Source: Candidatus Magasanikiibacteriota bacterium
Lineage (GTDB): Bacteria > Patescibacteriota > Patescibacteriia > Magasanikbacterales > UBA922
NCBI GenBank assembly: GCA_014729395.1
Contig: WJJZ01000010.1
Span: 92,544-156,543, forward strand
Direction of reading: 5' to 3'
DNA length: 64,000 nt
Shown here: positions 5,303 through 14,851 of the stretch, one piece after another
How the letters are laid out: the number at the start of each line of letters is the position of its first letter
Numbering within the stretch: position 1 is the stretch's first letter
Translations under genes and position numbers: made by a program
Notes under the pieces: generated by a model
Seen by the model: only the letters and a program-made list of their open reading frames with translations
Databases searched by the model: none
Told to the model about the DNA's origin: nothing

Positions 5303-7876
5303 TTATTTCCTTTTCAAAAATCTTTTCAAATACCTGCCAGTATAGCTGGGACCATAAATTGCTACTTGCTCAGGTGTACCAACAGTTACCAATTCACCAC
5401 CCTTGTCGCCCCCTTCAGGACCAAGATCTATAATCCAATCAGCACATTTTATAAGATCTAAATTATGTTCAATTACCATTACAGTATTTCCTTTACCAAC
5501 CAAGTCTTGTAAAACTGAAATAAGCTTTTTGACATCATCATAATGAAGACCTGTTGTAGGCTCATCCAATAAAAATAAAGTTTTGGTTGTACTTTTTTTA
5601 GCCAGTTCTTTACTTAGTTTTATCCTCTGTGCCTCACCGCCGGACAAAGTCTTGGCAGACTGACCTAATGTTAAATAATCCAAACCAACCCGACTCAACA
5701 TTTTTAATTTGTCGGCAATAACGGGAATGTCCATAAAAAAATCTTTTGCCTCGGCTATAGTCATATCTAGCACATCAGCAATATTCTTATCTTTATAATG
5801 AACTTGCAAAGTTTCATGATTAAATCTTTTTCCTTTGCATGCATCACATACAATCTCCACACTGGGCAAAAAATGCATCTCTATTTCCAAAACCCCTCTA
5901 CCTTCACAATTTTCACAACGACCCTGCGGACGATTGAAACTAAAACGACCGGGTTTATAACCTCTTATTCTAGCTTCCGGTGTAGCAGCAAAAATATCTC
6001 TAATACCGGTATAGGCTCCGGTATAAGTAGCCGGGTTAGACCGCGGACTTCTCCCGATTGGATTTTGATCAATTTTGATTATTTTATCCAAATAATCCAT
6101 TCCCAAGATCTCTTTGTGTTTACCGACTCTTTTTTTAACATGATGAAGCTTATTGGCAACAGATCTAAACAAAATATCATGCATCAAGGTGGATTTCCCG
6201 GAACCGGATACGCCCGTCAAACAAACAAAACGTCTAAGCGGTATTTCAACATCAATATTTTTCAAATTATGCTCAGCCGCCTTGTTTATCTTTAATTTTG
6301 GTGTAGAATTACTAATCTTTCTACGTTTATCCGGTACTACAATTTTTTCTTCCCCTCTCAAATATTTCCCAGTTAATGATTTACCCGGATCGCCAAAAGA
6401 TTTGCAACCAAAATCTCCAGTCTCCAGTCTCCAGTCTCCATTTTTTTTCTTATTTGTAACATCTAACAATTTCTCAAGCGACCCACTATATACAATCTTC
6501 CCTCCGTGTTCCCCTGCTCCCGGACCAATATCAACCACCCAGTCGCTTGTTAAAATTGTATCCTCATCATGCTCAACGGTAATGATAGTATTACCCTTGT
6601 CACATAAATCACGTAAAGTGCCCACCAGCTGATCATTGTCTTTTTGGTGCAATCCAATAGTTGGCTCGTCGAGTACATACATTGCCCCTACCAGTTGCTG
6701 ACCAACTTGAGAAGCCAATCTAATCCTCTGGGCTTCTCCACCGGAAAGAGTTCCGGCCCGACGATTTAAAGTCAAATAATGCAGGCCAACGTTTAGCATA
6801 AATTGCAAACGATTCAGAATTTCTTTCATAGCAGCGCCGACTATTTCTTTTTGTTTGTCGCTTAATTTATGATCCAAATCAACAAAAAAAGCCGCCGCTT
6901 CATCAATTGACATGGAAGTAATATGCCAAATATTTTTTCCAGCTATTTTTACATGCAAGGCGTTTTCATTTAGCCTTTTGCCTTTACAAACCGGACAAGG
7001 CTCTTCACTGAAAAGCTCTTTTGTGCCAAGACCGGTACAAAATTCACAATAACCATAAGGACTATTAAAACTAAATAATCTAGGTTCTATTTCCGGGAAA
7101 CTAAAACCATCTTTCGGACAAGAATATTCAGTACTGAAAATATTTTCGTTATTATCCGGATAAATTACTGTGCAAAGTCCGTTTGATAAATCCACAGCTG
7201 TTTCCACCGCTTCGGCCAAGCGACTTTTATCAATCTTTACGGTCGGAATTTTATCAATCACTATTTCAATTGTATGCTTTTTATTCTTAGACAAAATAAT
7301 TTTTTCTTTCAAGGATTTCATTTTTCCGTCAACCCTAACTTCGGCAAATCCTGAATTATACATATCATAAAGCATTTGATAATACTCACCCTTCCTACCA
7401 CGCACAACCGGCGACAAAATAATTAATTCTTTTTTAGTTTTTTTAATATTTTTTATAATGCGATCTACTATCTCATCCGTCGTCATCTTTTCAATCTTTG
7501 TTCCACACTTTGGACAATAGGGTTCACCAATTCTAGCAAACAAAACTCGCAGATAATCATAGATTTCCGTTAGAGTTGCAACCGTTGAGCGAGGATTAGC
7601 ACTATGAGCTTTTTGATCAATTGAAATGGCCGGTGACAAACCCTCAATCTCATCTACATCCGGCTTACTTAGACCACCTAAAAACTGTCTGGCATAAGCG
7701 GACAAACTTTCAATATATCTACGTTGACCCTCTGCAAAAATGGTATCAAAAGCCAGGCTCGACTTGCCTGAACCGGACAAACCTGTAAAAACAATCATTT
7801 TATTGCGTGGCAGCTCAAGATTAATATTTTTTAGATTATGTTCTCGAGCACCTTTTATTGTTATTTTCTCTTGCAT
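5303..7876 (-). CDS. uvrA: Excinuclease ABC subunit A (UvrA)
   Basis: Two ABC ATPase modules with Walker A (GLSGSGKSSLAFDT and [10 protein letters not shown]), ABC signatures (LSGGEAQR, twice) and zinc-finger Cys clusters. At 857 aa it is shorter than typical UvrA. Confidence 0.95.
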   Translation of the reverse strand: MQEKITIKGAREHNLKNINLELPRNKMIVFTGLSGSGKSSLAFDTIFAEGQRRYIESLSAYARQFLGGLSKPDVDEIEGLSPAISIDQKAHSANPRSTVATLTEIYDYLRVLFARIGEPYCPKCGTKIEKMTTDEIVDRIIKNIKKTKKELIILSPVVRGRKGEYYQMLYDMYNSGFAEVRVDGKMKSLKEKIILSKNKKHTIEIVIDKIPTVKIDKSRLAEAVETAVDLSNGLCTVIYPDNNENIFSTEYSCPKDGFSFPEIEPRLFSFNSPYGYCEFCTGLGTKELFSEEPCPVCKGKRLNENALHVKIAGKNIWHITSMSIDEAAAFFVDLDHKLSDKQKEIVGAAMKEILNRLQFMLNVGLHYLTLNRRAGTLSGGEAQRIRLASQVGQQLVGAMYVLDEPTIGLHQKDNDQLVGTLRDLCDKGNTIITVEHDEDTILTSDWVVDIGPGAGEHGGKIVYSGSLEKLLDVTNKKKNGDWRLETGDFGCKSFGDPGKSLTGKYLRGEEKIVVPDKRRKISNSTPKLKINKAAEHNLKNIDVEIPLRRFVCLTGVSGSGKSTLMHDILFRSVANKLHHVKKRVGKHKEILGMDYLDKIIKIDQNPIGRSPRSNPATYTGAYTGIRDIFAATPEARIRGYKPGRFSFNRPQGRCENCEGRGVLEIEMHFLPSVEIVCDACKGKRFNHETLQVHYKDKNIADVLDMTIAEAKDFFMDIPVIADKLKMLSRVGLDYLTLGQSAKTLSGGEAQRIKLSKELAKKSTTKTLFLLDEPTTGLHYDDVKKLISVLQDLVGKGNTVMVIEHNLDLIKCADWIIDLGPEGGDKGGELVTVGTPEQVAIYGPSYTGRYLKRFLKRK
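6414..6441. repeat. 7-nt tandem repeat (ctccagt, about 3.7 copies) inside the uvrA coding sequence
   Basis: Read directly from the sequence: tctccagtctccagtctccagtctcca. Three copies make 21 nt, which keeps the reading frame; a gain or loss of one unit would shift the frame. Confidence 0.8.
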
Positions 7877-11652: not shown

Positions 11653-12770
11653 CAAGGATGTTGGTGCGCTTTGCAAGTCCTCAATGAGGAGGAGCAAACA
11701 GAACTGAACTCTCATGTTCTCCAAACCAGATACATCAAAAAAGTGGTCCTCTTACGAGGACGCGCAACACAGAATCAGTGTTTGGAACATAAGAGGGATA
11801 AGTCTGGCACTAACATCCTTCTTTTTTTTGTCAGTGCACAGTTCTCAGTTCACAGCCATCACTTGACGACTTTTTTTATACTTGATAAGATTAATCTTGC
11901 CGCTAGAGAAAAAGGCATGAGTGGCAATCGACAATTGTAGACGTTTAATTCGTCACAAAAATCGATTCAAACTTCTGGAAAGTTCGAGACTTTTAGTCAC
12001 GGATACTCTGGAAAAAGCTCATGAAAAAAACTCCAGTGGCACACGGGATGAGACATGTTTTTCACAATATCCAGGCGGTTGATCTGCCGGTGAGTGATAA
12101 ACGAACTTTAAAACGTTTTGATGTGTAGAAATAATTGGAGTCTAAGGTAAACCAACTAAAGACTCGATGTGTAGACACGCTAAAAATCGTGGAAACAATC
12201 GGTGCTGAGCATCGACTGATAACAAACGGTGGGTGCGAACGAGATCTTTGATCAAGTTCAAGCAAGTGTCTGTACAACAATTATGAAACGTGTCAGCTGG
12301 TGAACAGCTCACATGAGGTGAAACATACTCACGCGAAAAGTTCACACACTTTCAAGCGGAAAGTCAGTAGATTGGTAAAACCTTAGTGTTGCACCAAAAT
12401 CAACTTTCACAAATGAAAGAGCTGTCTGACAAGCACATCCAGAAGATATTACTTTAGAGAAACTTTCTTCCAAGATGAAAATCTTGGACTTTGCCTGAAT
12501 GGGTAAGTTGTAGAAAGTAAATCGAGAGTGAAAATCCGAAGGATTTGTAAAAAGATAGCGTGATCTGATGACCATCTCTAATCATCTGAGTAACAACGAA
12601 GATGAATCGTGGAAACACGATAAAGATAGGTCAAAAGTTTGCTTTCATAGAGAGTTGAATTCTGCTGAACAGGAAGCAAAAAGTAAACCGGGTAAAACTG
12701 GTTGAAAAAGAAAGTGTAAAGCAAAAAACGTTTAAGAGGTTTGTGCATGTCCATCCCTCTTTTTTTTATT
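11650..12770 (+). ncRNA. Candidate large non-coding RNA or decayed island: about 1.1 kb with no ORF over 111 aa on either strand, elevated GC, a purine-rich plus strand and internal repeats (aatcgtggaaaca twice)
   Basis: The six-frame track has only short ORFs here. Composition differs markedly from the flanking AT-rich genes. An upstream promoter is present, and a weak hairpin plus T tract lies near 12740-12770. The family is not recognised. Confidence 0.3.
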
Positions 12771-13229
12771 CAAAAAATATAATATAATGAACTCTAGACG
12801 CTGTGTCGGCCGGTCATCAATAATCGGTCGCAAGGAACCAACTTGTTCTTACCTGCCATGAAACCCGTATAACACGAGGTTTCTTTTGTAAAGAAATCTA
12901 CACTTACTCGAAGTCCGGTGGTGGGAAAAGAAACAAGAAGGAGGCCTAAACGCAGCGTCCTTTTTTAATTCCAATTAACAAGAGGATGGTTTAAAGTATT
13001 AGCTAAAGTAGAATGTTGCCGCTGCAAAAACAAGTAGAACAAGCACTAATACCACAAGCGCCCTATCCTTGAACCTCTTTCTGAATACCAATTCAAAAGG
13101 TATGTAAAGTATTAGATAAAAGAGAACAATTCCAAACAGTAGACATATGATATAGATTGAGGTTGTTTTTTAATAAGAATTACACACACCATTTTATAAT
13201 TTTTTTATACAAATTTTAACTTACCTCTA

Positions 13230-13257
13230 TTGACATTTTGTTTATTCTTAGTATAAT
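13230..13257 (+). promoter_or_regulatory. Consensus sigma70 promoter (TTGACA-16-TATAAT) driving a short transcript
   Basis: TTGACA at 13230-13235 and TATAAT at 13252-13257. Confidence 0.6.
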
Positions 13258-13263
13258 TAATTT

Positions 13264-13336
13264 AATGATAAGTTAAGTTGCGAGAATCCAATATCCGCTC
13301 CGAATTTCAGAACTCCCTTTTGGGGGGTTCTTTTTT
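13264..13336 (+). ncRNA. Candidate roughly 70-nt sRNA whose 5' 15 nt are perfectly complementary to the anticodon arm of the adjacent tRNA-like gene
   Basis: Bounded by the consensus promoter and an intrinsic terminator (GAACTCCC/GGGGGGTTC stem plus TTTTTT at 13310-13336). Positions 13264-13278 (AATGATAAGTTAAGT) are the reverse complement of 13440-13454. Beyond that, the transcript is a diverged inverted copy of the tRNA-like 5' half. Confidence 0.35.
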
Positions 13337-13415
13337 AATAAAAATTTATCTATATTTTATAAAAAATTTGTTTTTCATTAATCATCTACTTTATATAATT
13401 AATTCGGCGGTACGG

Positions 13416-13489
13416 GGGCGGAGAGCGGATGGCTCCGCGACTTAACTTATCATTTAAGTTTCTGGGGTTCGATTCCCCCTCCGTCCACC
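13416..13489 (+). tRNA. tRNA-like gene with a canonical acceptor stem, D arm and T arm but an aberrant anticodon arm (6-bp stem, 8-nt loop); CCA not fully encoded
   Basis: Acceptor GGGCGGA/TCCGTCC includes a G3:U70 pair. D-stem is GCGG/CCGC with GG in the loop. T arm is GGGG-TTCGATT-CCCC. Discriminator A is followed by CC. Anticodon arm is ACTTAA-CTTATCAT-TTAAGT. An upstream TATAAT sits at 13394-13399. Confidence 0.45.
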
Positions 13490-13498
13490 GTCTAATTC

Positions 13499-14851
13499 TT
13501 AAACCTCAACTTCCTCCTCGTACTCCGGCACATAGCTCTCTACCCCAAGAGCTTCTTTTATTTTATGAGCTAATTCAGTTACACCGTTCGGTTCACCATG
13601 AACACAATATACTTTTTTAGGTGCTTTGGTACCACTGTTTACCCAATTTACCAACTTTGTTTGATCTCCATGGGCTGATAAAGCTCCGATCGCTTTGATT
13701 TCACATTTTACACCCACATCTTGGCCAAAAATTTTTACTTTTTCGGCTCCTTCATACAGCCTTCTTCCCAAAGTACCATTCGCCTGATAACCGACAATAA
13801 TCAGAGTGGAATTGGAATCAGACAAATATCTGATTGCGTGATGCAAAATCCTACCACCATTCATCATTCCGGATCCCGCTATAACCACCTTTGGTCCTTT
13901 TTTTCTGTTAATTTTTTTTGACTCTTCTTTGGTATAAGTCATTTTTAAATTTGGAAATTCAAAAAAATCATCACCGGCTTTGTGCAAACACATAGCTTTT
14001 TGGTCATAGTATGATGGAAACTTTTTGTATACTTTTGTAGCGTCTATCGCCAATGGACTATCCAAATATATGGGAACATTTGGTAAAAGATTATCATGTT
14101 CAATCAATAAATTAAGCTCATAAAGCAGTTCTTGAGTTCTTTCAAGTGAAAAAGCCGGAATCATAATGGTACCACCCTTTTGAATACCCCTTTTCAAGAG
14201 ACCATGTATTATGCTCCGTCTGGTATCAATATCTTCATGCAATCTATCACCATATGTAGATTCTACAAGTAAAACATCCAATTCGTCTAAATTTTGCGTA
14301 TCCCTCAAAATCGGTACATTTTCATTTCCTATGTCACCGGAAAAGCCGATCTTTTTACCGCTTACCTCCACCTCTATAAAAGCGGCACCAAATATATGTC
14401 CCGCGTCTTTCCAAACAGCAAAAATATTATCTTCAATTTTAATCTTTTTATTATATTTTACACCTTTGCAATGCGATATGGCTTCTGCCACATCATTTTC
14501 ATCAAATAAAATTGGAGTATTATATTTTCTATGATTGTATTTCATAATACCATAAGCATCCTCCCATATCAGCTTGGCAAATTCACAGGTTGCCTCAGTC
14601 ATGTATATAGCTCCTGTAAAACCCTCTTTTATTAGTTTTGGTATCCTACCTATATGATCTAGATGAGCATGGGTTACCAACACAAAATCAATATCTTTTG
14701 GGTCAAATGGAAAATCATCATGATTTCGTCCTTCGTTAAAATTTGATCCTTGAAACATCCCACAATCAACCAAAAACCGATTATTACTGGTTTTTACCAA
14801 ATGACAAGAACCGGTTACTTCTCGATCTGCTCCACAAAATTTTATTTGCAT
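13499..14851 (-). CDS. MBL-fold beta-CASP ribonuclease (RNase J / CPSF-like RNA-processing exonuclease)
   Basis: Metallo-beta-lactamase HxHxDH motif (THAHLDHIG), followed by beta-CASP and RNA-specificity regions. 450 aa. Confidence 0.85.
   Translation of the reverse strand: MQIKFCGADREVTGSCHLVKTSNNRFLVDCGMFQGSNFNEGRNHDDFPFDPKDIDFVLVTHAHLDHIGRIPKLIKEGFTGAIYMTEATCEFAKLIWEDAYGIMKYNHRKYNTPILFDENDVAEAISHCKGVKYNKKIKIEDNIFAVWKDAGHIFGAAFIEVEVSGKKIGFSGDIGNENVPILRDTQNLDELDVLLVESTYGDRLHEDIDTRRSIIHGLLKRGIQKGGTIMIPAFSLERTQELLYELNLLIEHDNLLPNVPIYLDSPLAIDATKVYKKFPSYYDQKAMCLHKAGDDFFEFPNLKMTYTKEESKKINRKKGPKVVIAGSGMMNGGRILHHAIRYLSDSNSTLIIVGYQANGTLGRRLYEGAEKVKIFGQDVGVKCEIKAIGALSAHGDQTKLVNWVNSGTKAPKKVYCVHGEPNGVTELAHKIKEALGVESYVPEYEEEVEV

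Follow-up and report, generated by a model that had tools for sequence, protein, structure and literature searches.

Why should a gene shaped like a transfer RNA (tRNA) carry an aberrant anticodon arm, and why should a second small transcription unit near it begin with the exact complement of that arm? This question is raised by positions 13230-13489 of a 64,000-nucleotide stretch of Candidatus Magasanikiibacteriota DNA (contig WJJZ01000010.1, positions 92,544 to 156,543 of the forward strand), the whole of which is called the window below. An earlier reading of the letters, the original prediction, had proposed an antisense, sponge or decoy relationship between two RNAs rather than a plain tRNA, and had named the footprint of an inverted partial duplication as the alternative. 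In our analysis the antisense-type relationship was supported by conserved partners, compensatory changes and predicted promoters and terminators. We consider it probable that this site represents a single instance of a two-gene module, made up of RNA genes only and conserved in Patescibacteria, in which a small RNA (sRNA) would serve as the off-switch or antidote of an alanine-accepting mimic of tRNA or transfer-messenger RNA (tmRNA).

The two RNA genes of the window

The first gene, at 13416-13489(+), encodes an RNA of about 72 nucleotides (nt) that resembles a tRNA or the tRNA-like domain (TLD) of tmRNA. The acceptor stem, D arm and T arm listed in the original prediction were all recovered, and RNAfold returned the cloverleaf 13416-13487(+) as the minimum-free-energy structure (-32.4 kcal/mol, z = -3.5). 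The acceptor stem is formed by 13416-13422 with 13480-13486, an eighth base pair (bp) being possible at 13423:13479, and it contains G13418:T13484, the equivalent of G3:U70. A73 (13487) is followed by CC and then by G, so that CCA is incompletely encoded. The D arm, GCGG(A)/(T)CCGC at 13425-13438, has a short loop with GG, and the T arm at 13464-13478 reads GGGG-TTCGATT-CCCC. The anticodon-like arm at 13440-13459(+), which is the predicted target of the sRNA, is as unusual as had been claimed: a 6-bp stem (13440-13445 with 13454-13459) is capped by an 8-nt loop at 13446-13453, written CUUAUCAU or CTTATCAT.

Compared with canonical tRNAs, the element retains a cloverleaf with a 7-bp acceptor and D, anticodon and T arms, the T-loop motif TTCRANY and GG in the D loop. 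The canonical 7-nt anticodon loop and 5-bp stem are absent, their place being taken by the 8-nt loop, the 6-bp stem and an extra base before the stem; the tertiary nucleotides are also off canonical, with G instead of U at position 8 and a D loop of 4-6 nt. Annotation programs treated it as marginal. ARAGORN called no tRNA in the window at default thresholds and reported "tRNA-??? (tatc)" with an 8-nt loop at relaxed ones, and its tmRNA mode gave no match in the window or in 32 family loci. The Infernal search suggested along with the original prediction gave 29.9 bits for the Rfam tRNA model in a region-only run (gathering score 29, model positions 1-71 aligned) and nothing for this element in the whole-window run at gathering thresholds, as against 63-76 bits for genuine tRNAs in related loci. 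tRNA, not tmRNA, was its best Rfam match, and a D stem is present. A tmRNA body is absent from this 72-nt RNA, in which the closed 8-nt loop replaces about 310 nt, and there is no messenger RNA (mRNA)-like domain with resume codon, tag reading frame and pseudoknots. The window element is a borderline tRNA only. G3:U70 and A73 nevertheless predict recognition of the RNA by alanyl-tRNA synthetase (AlaRS).

A promoter-like site at 13372-13399(+), TTTTCA-16-TATAAT with 10 of 12 consensus positions, precedes this gene; its -10 box ends 16 nt 5' of G1, and in relatives a TATAAT-like box, read from the sequence, lies similarly close. A hairpin with a T-rich tail at 13534-13553(+) is a possible terminator, weakly assigned: it falls within the 3' end of the convergent beta-CASP gene, is not conserved elsewhere, and is also 83% complementary to 13415-13426 in the 5' acceptor strand. 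In tmRNA-like relatives, leader-trailer pairing that lengthens the acceptor stem seems to act as the terminator.

The second gene, upstream on the same strand, is predicted from a -10 box and a terminator to encode an sRNA of about 70 nt at 13264-13337(+), starting at about 13263-13265 and ending in a U tract. As originally described, its promoter at 13230-13257(+) matches the sigma-70 consensus at all 12 positions (TTGACA, 16-nt spacer, TATAAT), and a terminator scan confirmed the clean intrinsic terminator, a hairpin at 13309-13331(+) with 10 pairs, five of them G-C, and a T run to about 13337. The 5' seed (13264-13278(+)) is the exact complement of the loop and 5' stem strand of the tRNA-like RNA (13440-13454); this 15-nt match occurs once in the 64 kilobases (kb), with no second copy even at two or fewer mismatches, and the complementarity in the seed region reaches 22 nt at 91%. 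The sRNA body (13279-13303(+)) is imperfectly antisense to the D arm and 5' acceptor strand, and its reverse complement resembles the D arm and acceptor, in agreement with the diverged inverted copy noted earlier. On cofolding, the body paired with 13417-13439 and the sRNA as a whole with the entire 5' half of the tRNA-like RNA, and the heteroduplex was favoured (-66.2 kcal/mol versus -48.9 kcal/mol folded separately). The window therefore holds what an antisense pair consists of, two RNAs with extended complementarity, each with a predicted promoter and terminator. The comparative data given below show that this pairing goes well beyond chance. The sRNA has no Rfam family match, and downstream of it lies the tRNA-like gene alone.

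A further trace of the sRNA was observed at 13147-13181(+), where ATGATATAGATTGAGGTTG is followed by TTTTTTAATAAGAATT, like the sRNA seed (ATGATAAGTTAAGTTG) joined to the terminator tail; 13161-13181 and 13326-13346 (repeat D2) are 90% identical. It may be what is left of another copy of the sRNA gene, shortened by an internal deletion; a convincing promoter was not observed there.

Conservation of the family and of its partners

Relatives were sought by a metagenome scan for the loop followed by the T arm at the correct spacing, which gave at least 120 matches in one metagenome collection, about a third of them tRNA-shaped genes of about 68-72 nt. Together with a covariance model, the scan yielded about 38 distinct homologues; this and the other counts of family members given below are among the matches listed. 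In alignment A2, G3:U70 is present in 32 of 33 members (the exception, L028, is a misaligned row) and A73 likewise in 32 of 33, and GG in the D region and a canonical T loop occur in all aligned members. The acceptor, stem and T-arm pairs covary across the family, including the intramolecular stem of the anticodon-like arm. Instead of normal 7-nt loops with the upstream unit absent or unconserved, which was named beforehand as the outcome that would speak against the original prediction, all homologues showed the 8-nt loop and a non-canonical stem, and most were partnered. The covariance model R1 was built from 33 members, and its training sequences score 54-88 bits; the window copy scores 63.1 bits (E = 1e-12), as expected by construction because it was among the source sequences, and further members were also found. 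Most family loci have 30-49% GC, and three were placed by exact look-up of neighbour proteins, in Candidatus Uhrbacteria, Candidatus Jacksonbacteria and "Patescibacteria group".

Two body plans, which intergrade, can be recognized; model R1 brings both together, as its training set would lead one to expect. In the window-like members the acceptor has 8 bp, a D stem is present, the anticodon-like stem measures 5-6 bp and the variable region 4-5 nt; one of them (L078) has the acceptor sequence of the window copy and a different stem. In the larger, tmRNA-like group the D stem is absent, the helix has 9 bp, and the acceptor reads GGGGGUG.../...CACCUCCA, often lengthened by leader-trailer pairing and followed by a U run. 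These members align to positions 1-374 of the Rfam tmRNA model (RF00023) with the central 310 nt deleted, at 30-42 bits (E = 1e-13 to 4e-8), all below the gathering score of 47. On these alignments they are best described as look-alikes of TLD-only tmRNA. With the tmRNA TLD and its TLD-only variants (mycobacteriophage DS6A, jakobid mitochondria, "Standard NoCDS") they share G3:U70, A73, the acceptor, a stemless D region and the T arm, as well as a comparable size of about 65-72 nt and an end-to-end alignment to the Rfam model with the middle deleted. The family differs in scoring below the gathering score, in the conserved 8-nt loop that caps the helix, in the best match of the window member being tRNA, and in being additional to the standard tmRNA of the phylum, sometimes with several members on one contig. 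Unlike the tmRNA forms described in PMC11915505 and PMC4131195, its members also have a dedicated complementary sRNA gene. Three instances of "Standard NoCDS" tmRNA are recorded in Patescibacteria (PMC11915505), and these entries may be members of the present family.

A second gene was found near at least 27 of the approximately 38 distinct members, so that both elements are conserved elsewhere. The partner RNA starts with (A/U/C)UGAUA(A/G)G, continues with the complement of the 5' stem strand of the same locus, and pairs with its target over 9-16 nt, exactly or with G-U pairs tolerated. In each of the 22 partners tabulated, a TTGACA-17-TATAAT promoter stops 7-12 nt short of the complementary core, which is followed 55-90 nt later by an intrinsic terminator; the homologous partner sRNAs, 55-90 nt long, share the layout of the window. 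Partners of window-like members are encoded on the same strand, some 100-150 nt upstream, and those of tmRNA-like members at +108 to +142, beyond the terminator of the tRNA-like gene itself. At one locus (L108) the partner is on the opposite DNA strand with divergent transcription predicted, and the repeat is a direct one in the DNA; even so, 19 of 20 positions of the two RNAs can pair. Given this arrangement and the varied gene order, neither an invertible segment, which was rejected on these grounds, nor a simple palindrome can explain the pairing.

Compensatory changes across the pairing were evaluated on an anchored alignment of 21 pairs with 20 proposed intermolecular base pairs and 500 shuffles. 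The intermolecular cells were paired in 88.6% of cases versus 76.2% in shuffles and 23-40% in register-slid controls, double-sided changes numbered 62 cells versus 22.5 expected and affected 12 of the 20 pairs, and none of the 500 shuffles reached the observed pairing values, which are inflated in that partners were selected partly by complementarity. The partner promoters, terminators and fixed distances are independent of this selection. Cognate duplexes averaged -46.1 kcal/mol versus -30.7 ± 7.5 kcal/mol for non-cognate ones, and the cognate partner was ranked first for 17 of 23 sRNAs and among the top three for all. For the distal part of the sRNA alone, which faces the D region and the 5' acceptor, the values were -19.4 kcal/mol for cognate, -13.2 for non-cognate and -12.2 for shuffled sequences. 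In all 17 pairs tested the heterodimer was predicted to be 10-28 kcal/mol more stable than the separate folds. Compensatory changes, as between the members of an antisense pair, were thus observed across loci. Both genes, their signals, their conservation and a covarying, cognate-specific complementarity were obtained here by direct computation.

Some contigs carry further copies with other loops. The second copy of L055 (288-354(+)) has loop AUUAUCAA and partner GUGAUAAU, with one compensatory loop change. That of L039 (9843-9913(-)), whose acceptor is like that of the window, has loop UCUUGCCA and partner UGGCAAGA / UGGCAAGAUUGG, and cross-pairing between the two L039 modules is about 20 kcal/mol weaker than cognate pairing. 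The second copy of L140 (592-666(-)) has loop CCUCGAGAA and partner CUCGAGGGCCC; this partner, CUCGAGGGCCCUUUA-CCAAGCC, lies downstream behind TTGACA-17-TAGTAT. At least three other-loop genes have their own cognate sRNA, and ARAGORN labels two other-loop genes as tRNA-Ser(cga). Because paralogues with different loops have matching partners, the architecture appears general and its specificity set by complementarity. These copies suggest a larger superfamily with several loop "addresses" per genome, and several orthogonal pairs can, on this evidence, coexist on one contig. G3:U70 tRNA-like genes also occur in tandem, two in L110 and three in L130; the further genes with other loops lie at L110 261-333(+), L130 118-186 and 291-362(-), and L096 544-615(-), and the loops among them include CACCGAGAA and AUGGCA.

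The searches also returned sequences outside the family. A tRNA with a canonical D arm and body and without G3:U70 at L049 9522-9593(+) has the same 8-nt loop, CUUAUCAU, and no partner sRNA. A genuine tRNA-Ile(UAU) at L064 1476-1549(-) scores 75.7 bits; its loop, CUUAUAA, differs from the family loop at the 3' end, where the family has CAU for AA and is one base longer. Dozens of near-identical tRNA-derived repeats with loop TTATCAT (L026-L144, many of them short contigs) were caught as well, in JAAUYA/JAAUXW records and Ga0123355/57 termite-gut contigs; examples read GGGGGACTAGCTCAGTGGTAGAGCGCTCG-CTTATCAT-GCGAG... and GACCAGCCTCGTGGTCTAGTGGTCAG.... They look like eukaryotic tRNA-derived elements of the short interspersed nuclear element (SINE) kind or tRNA-Asp variants and are unrelated to the family. 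A strict pattern of D arm plus T arm had no match in metagenomes, exact-sequence scans of viral contigs with either half of the tRNA-like gene had none either, and three viral-contig matches to the loop plus T-arm pattern were rejected for lack of fit to the family model.

Proposed function and competing explanations

From these sequences we infer expression, the direction of control, alanylation and a cellular role as follows. The first gene would give a stable RNA of about 72 nt that mimics tRNA-Ala or the tmRNA TLD, with a GG/T-loop elbow and a helix that ends in an 8-nt loop opening with a U-turn-type CUUA; it appears to keep all that tRNA-Ala or the TLD needs for processing and AlaRS recognition, minus the standard anticodon loop. 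The second gene would give an sRNA of about 70 nt from its own strong promoter, with complementarity and the terminator as its sole conserved features. The single-stranded 5' end of the sRNA would nucleate on the loop and then zip down the 5' half, so that the cloverleaf gives way to a heteroduplex. Once pairing is complete, neither the D/T elbow nor the acceptor stem would persist, and recognition by AlaRS, RNase P, EF-Tu or SmpB would be lost; the long duplex is possibly also an RNase III substrate. When free, the mimic would most likely interfere with or tune translation, for example by competing for SmpB and stalled ribosomes as TLD-only fragments perhaps do, or, less likely, decode by way of its 8-nt loop.

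Because the sRNA keeps nothing but complementarity and a terminator, binding of the tRNA-like RNA is most simply taken to be its purpose. A regulated competitor or poison of ribosome rescue or of tRNA-Ala use is favoured because TLD-only RNAs are reported to inhibit tmRNA and standard tmRNA is widespread. The account in PMC4131195, citing Mao 2009, describes the inhibition by TLD-only RNA as strong and perhaps due to SmpB titration, and standard tmRNA was found in 5252 of 6765 Patescibacteria genomes, or 78% (PMC11915505). A toxin-antidote-like selfish or defence module would also agree with the close linkage of the two genes, their changing order, a patchy distribution outside synteny, the insertion relative to the closest genome (L001) and the presence of several orthogonal copies. 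A tentative extension, which we regard as possible and rather doubtful, is a new, sequence-addressable lock-and-key class in which an alanine-accepting mimic, the "lock", would poison or reprogram ribosomes and the cognate sRNA would be the "key" that neutralises it, orthogonal pairs behaving like mobile toxin-antidote or defence elements. The lock may work by SmpB titration and entry into stalled ribosomes, or by +1 or mis-decoding through the expanded loop.

Several observations weigh against the off-switch model. Eight of the 38 members have no partner detected within about 400-500 nt, and two partner-less members, L113 and L124, are on contigs of 60-66% GC; three further members lie too near a contig end for a partner call. 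The loop invariance is partly by construction, because the loop (CTTATCAT) and some of the T arm were prescribed in the pattern used for retrieval, and only seven members are independent of that pattern; pairing alone does not explain why the loop sequence is so strongly conserved. The inflation of the pairing statistics noted above belongs here as well. The element was not found at the syntenic site of 19 Magasanikbacteria loci with the beta-CASP gene, and therefore it is not a universal housekeeping element there. The link to SmpB is weaker for the window member because it has a D stem and its best Rfam match is tRNA, not TLD, and any role in trans-translation would be accessory because most Patescibacteria genomes have a standard tmRNA.

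The roles may instead be reversed, an explanation that we consider unlikely and yet worth weighing. The sRNA would be the effector, either as a base-pairing regulator or through a leaderless AUG-AUA-AGY mini-ORF (open reading frame), and the tRNA-like RNA a sponge, decoy or antitoxin masking its 5' end. The complementary core does occupy the very 5' end of the sRNA, a common position for sRNA seeds, and reads AUGAUAAG, within 0-3 nt of the predicted start; counted from the 5' AUG, the frame has exactly nine codons in 10 of 22 loci, of both body types. tRNA-derived sponges, such as 3'ETS-leuZ, are also known. Against this, the sRNA has no conserved sequence beyond the complementarity to its own partner and the terminator, the peptide is unconserved, the frame varies from 3 to more than 25 codons with UUG or CUG for AUG in three loci, other loop classes have no AUG at all (the second copy of L140, L140b), and the window shows no excess of ATGATAAG (5 sites, with 3.1 expected). 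The strictness with which G3:U70, A73, the GG D loop and the T loop are kept also speaks for a tRNA-type role of the tRNA-like RNA itself. The AUG frame is seen in the window at 13265-13276 and in L043, L071, L119, L134, L098 and L138, with peptides starting M-I-S/G....

It is improbable, in our judgment, that the tRNA-like RNA is an alanine-charged decoder restrained by the sRNA, its 8-nt loop (UAUC, or UAU plus C) causing +1 frameshifting or Ile-to-Ala misreading at AUA(N)/GAUA. ARAGORN reads an anticodon "tatc" in an 8-nt loop with U33, and the three loop classes resemble the Ile(UAU), Ser(CGA) and Ala(UGC) loops plus one base (CU-UAU-C-AU, CU-CGA-G-AA, CU-UGC-C-A), a genuine tRNA-Ile(UAU) with loop CUUAUAA being present in L064. 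AlaRS ignores the anticodon, 8-nt loops are the classical frameshift-suppressor lesion, and the tmRNA-like 9-bp stem is about as long as a D stem plus an anticodon stem. The RNA also shares with tRNA-Ala and suf-class suppressors the cloverleaf, G3:U70 and A73, the T loop, the G18G19 equivalents and a U at the position of U33 in an 8-nt loop. What separates them is the body, which carries the extra loop base of a suppressor and is otherwise unlike a normal isoacceptor: G8 replaces U8, the D loop is very short, a base is added at 26/27, and the helices have an 8/4 acceptor/T geometry; the antisense partner is a further difference. The tmRNA-like relatives lack a D stem and score as tmRNA TLD, not as tRNA. 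Two of the three loop classes would place a pyrimidine at position 37, and with three classes only the likeness to anticodon loops may be due to chance.

A two-piece tmRNA, in which the tRNA-like piece gives alanine and the paired sRNA a short tagging frame, is very improbable because pairing would destroy the TLD and no tag-like frame is conserved. Two-piece tmRNAs joined by base pairing do exist (PMC11915505), tmRNA-like members are TLD-like by Rfam, and a short frame stopping at codon 10 recurs in the sRNA. Yet the pairing uses up the 5' half of the TLD including the acceptor 5' strand, the candidate tag frame begins in the paired region, varies in length and sequence and has no tag-like C terminus, pseudoknots are absent, a standard tmRNA already occurs in 78% of Patescibacteria genomes, and some contigs carry several modules.

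Scarcely credible is a neutral relic or DNA-level feature without RNA-RNA function, be it a pseudo-tRNA with an inverted duplicate, an inversion or recombination repeat, or gene conversion: although the module was inserted relative to L001 and what seems to be a degraded further copy of the sRNA 5' end lies at 13147-13181, the pair is conserved with compensatory changes across at least three candidate phylum-level lineages, the partner keeps a consensus promoter and terminator, L108 combines a direct DNA repeat with complementary RNAs, both gene orders occur, the sequence adjacent to the 9-16 nt perfect tract has diverged, and homologous recombination normally needs a longer tract. The duplication alternative of the original prediction thus holds in part: the sRNA probably arose by an inverted duplication, given the resemblance of its reverse-complemented body to the D arm and acceptor, and this origin does not account for the maintained pairing, for which neutral duplication is effectively excluded as the cause.

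Known mechanisms were also considered and rejected. A T-box riboswitch is contradicted by the absence of an Rfam T-box match, an sRNA of about 70 nt, pairing over 13-16 nt or more rather than a triplet, and downstream genes that differ between loci and have their own promoters. Type I toxin-antitoxin systems were rejected in that neither RNA has a conserved ORF and no neighbouring protein gene is conserved, and assembly of a split tRNA of the Nanoarchaeum type was dismissed as well.

The off-switch model has closer parallels among RNA pairs. In IS10 RNA-IN/RNA-OUT a 5' end contacts a loop, which is the geometry proposed for this module; such a contact, or one between two loops, also starts the pairing of the antisense RNAs hok/sok and CopA/CopT, and type VIII toxin-antitoxin systems and sponge RNAs are RNA-only antagonist pairs. 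Likewise, a free 5' end here faces the top of a stem-loop with a YUNR-type CUUA loop start, and pairing extends down one strand; as in RNA-only antagonist pairs, two linked genes are patchily and non-syntenically distributed, with several orthogonal copies per genome. In most known pairs of this kind the two RNAs are read from the two strands of one DNA segment and the target is an mRNA. The present module, in contrast, has separate genes, usually on the same strand, the target is tRNA-shaped and non-coding, and no toxin ORF is conserved. Among tRNA look-alikes, the non-proteinogenic tRNA-Gly of S. aureus, tRNA-Other of B. cereus, 3'ETS-leuZ and G3:U70 mistranslators of the tRNA-ProA type keep synthetase identity elements, deviate in the anticodon region, and are thought to act outside decoding or to perturb it. 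In contrast to these, no dedicated synthetase, Fem-type transferase or other conserved protein neighbour was seen in the present family, and we know of no report of a co-evolving antisense sRNA gene for them.

No description of such a tRNA-like/sRNA pair was found in full-text literature searches, and no Rfam family was found. The module is apparently undescribed and combines two familiar components, in that it would work like a TLD-only tmRNA or tRNA mimic together with a classical antisense pair; the possibility that it represents a categorically new type of RNA-only module is a real one. To our knowledge, no earlier bacterial case exists of a dedicated, co-evolving antisense RNA for a tRNA- or tmRNA-shaped RNA. 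If the pairing is functional, it would add an RNA-only layer of control or conflict over the use of aminoacyl-RNA and possibly over ribosome rescue. Some Patescibacteria calls of "tRNA-???", "tRNA-Ile(UAU)" and "CDS-less tmRNA" would then belong to a distinct, partnered family, which would form a natural series between tRNA-like and tmRNA-TLD-like architectures and a source of naturally orthogonal RNA-RNA pairs on a tRNA scaffold. Few bacteria of the candidate phyla radiation (CPR) have been cultivated, and their small RNAs have hardly been studied; a module defined by its sequence could open in vitro access to their biology.

Genomic setting and adjacent elements

The neighbouring genes in the window are uvrA, uvrB, a DUF218 gene, the convergent beta-CASP metallo-beta-lactamase RNase, corA, murJ and lepA. 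The relatives of the beta-CASP protein assign the window to Candidatus Magasanikbacteria (CPR/Patescibacteria). No relative of this protein above 74% identity was present in a collection clustered to 5.8 billion proteins, and none of 24 loci with beta-CASP RNase relatives (55-71% identity in Magasanikbacteria) has the element; one of them, L013, has a normal tRNA-Met and tRNA-Glu at the syntenic spot. All-against-all BLAST of the ORFs flanking family loci found no conserved protein neighbour, and the single multi-locus ORF "cluster" near the module was rejected as spurious ORFs reading through the element itself. In L001, the closest genome, the region equivalent to 12966-13498 is missing. This region was identified as a lineage-specific insertion because in L001 a candidate RNA of about 170 nt, which precedes the module in the window, abuts the beta-CASP stop codon.

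This candidate small RNA lies at 12795-12965(+), just 5' of the module, with its L001 counterpart at 5360-5545(-). The candidate has an AT-rich promoter region of its own; a closing stem GACGCTGTGT.../...ACGCAGCGTCC leads into a T run, and close to the 3' end GAAGGAGGCC is conserved. In L001 the closing stem is fully compensated (GGATACTATGC/GCATAGTATCC). It gave no Rfam match at E ≤ 1 and is absent from the other 18 syntenic loci.

Between uvrB and the candidate RNA, about 830 nt (11940-12775(+)) contain no long ORF, just three minus-strand ORFs of 67-77 amino acids, and many local hairpins, ending in a terminator-like hairpin and T run at about 12731-12775. L001 has an ORF-poor, GC-richer counterpart of about 1 kb at about 5640-6640(-), also with a terminator at its end. 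The two stretches share no blastn similarity, and no Rfam match was obtained in the stretch of the window; it could be a large non-coding RNA or a decayed gene. Finally, a direct repeat of about 45 nt is present in two copies, 12975-13030 and 13090-13135(+), about 108 nt apart in the inserted AT-rich segment, and reads CCAATT.A.AAGG.T.GT.TAAAGTATTAG.TAAA..AGAA.

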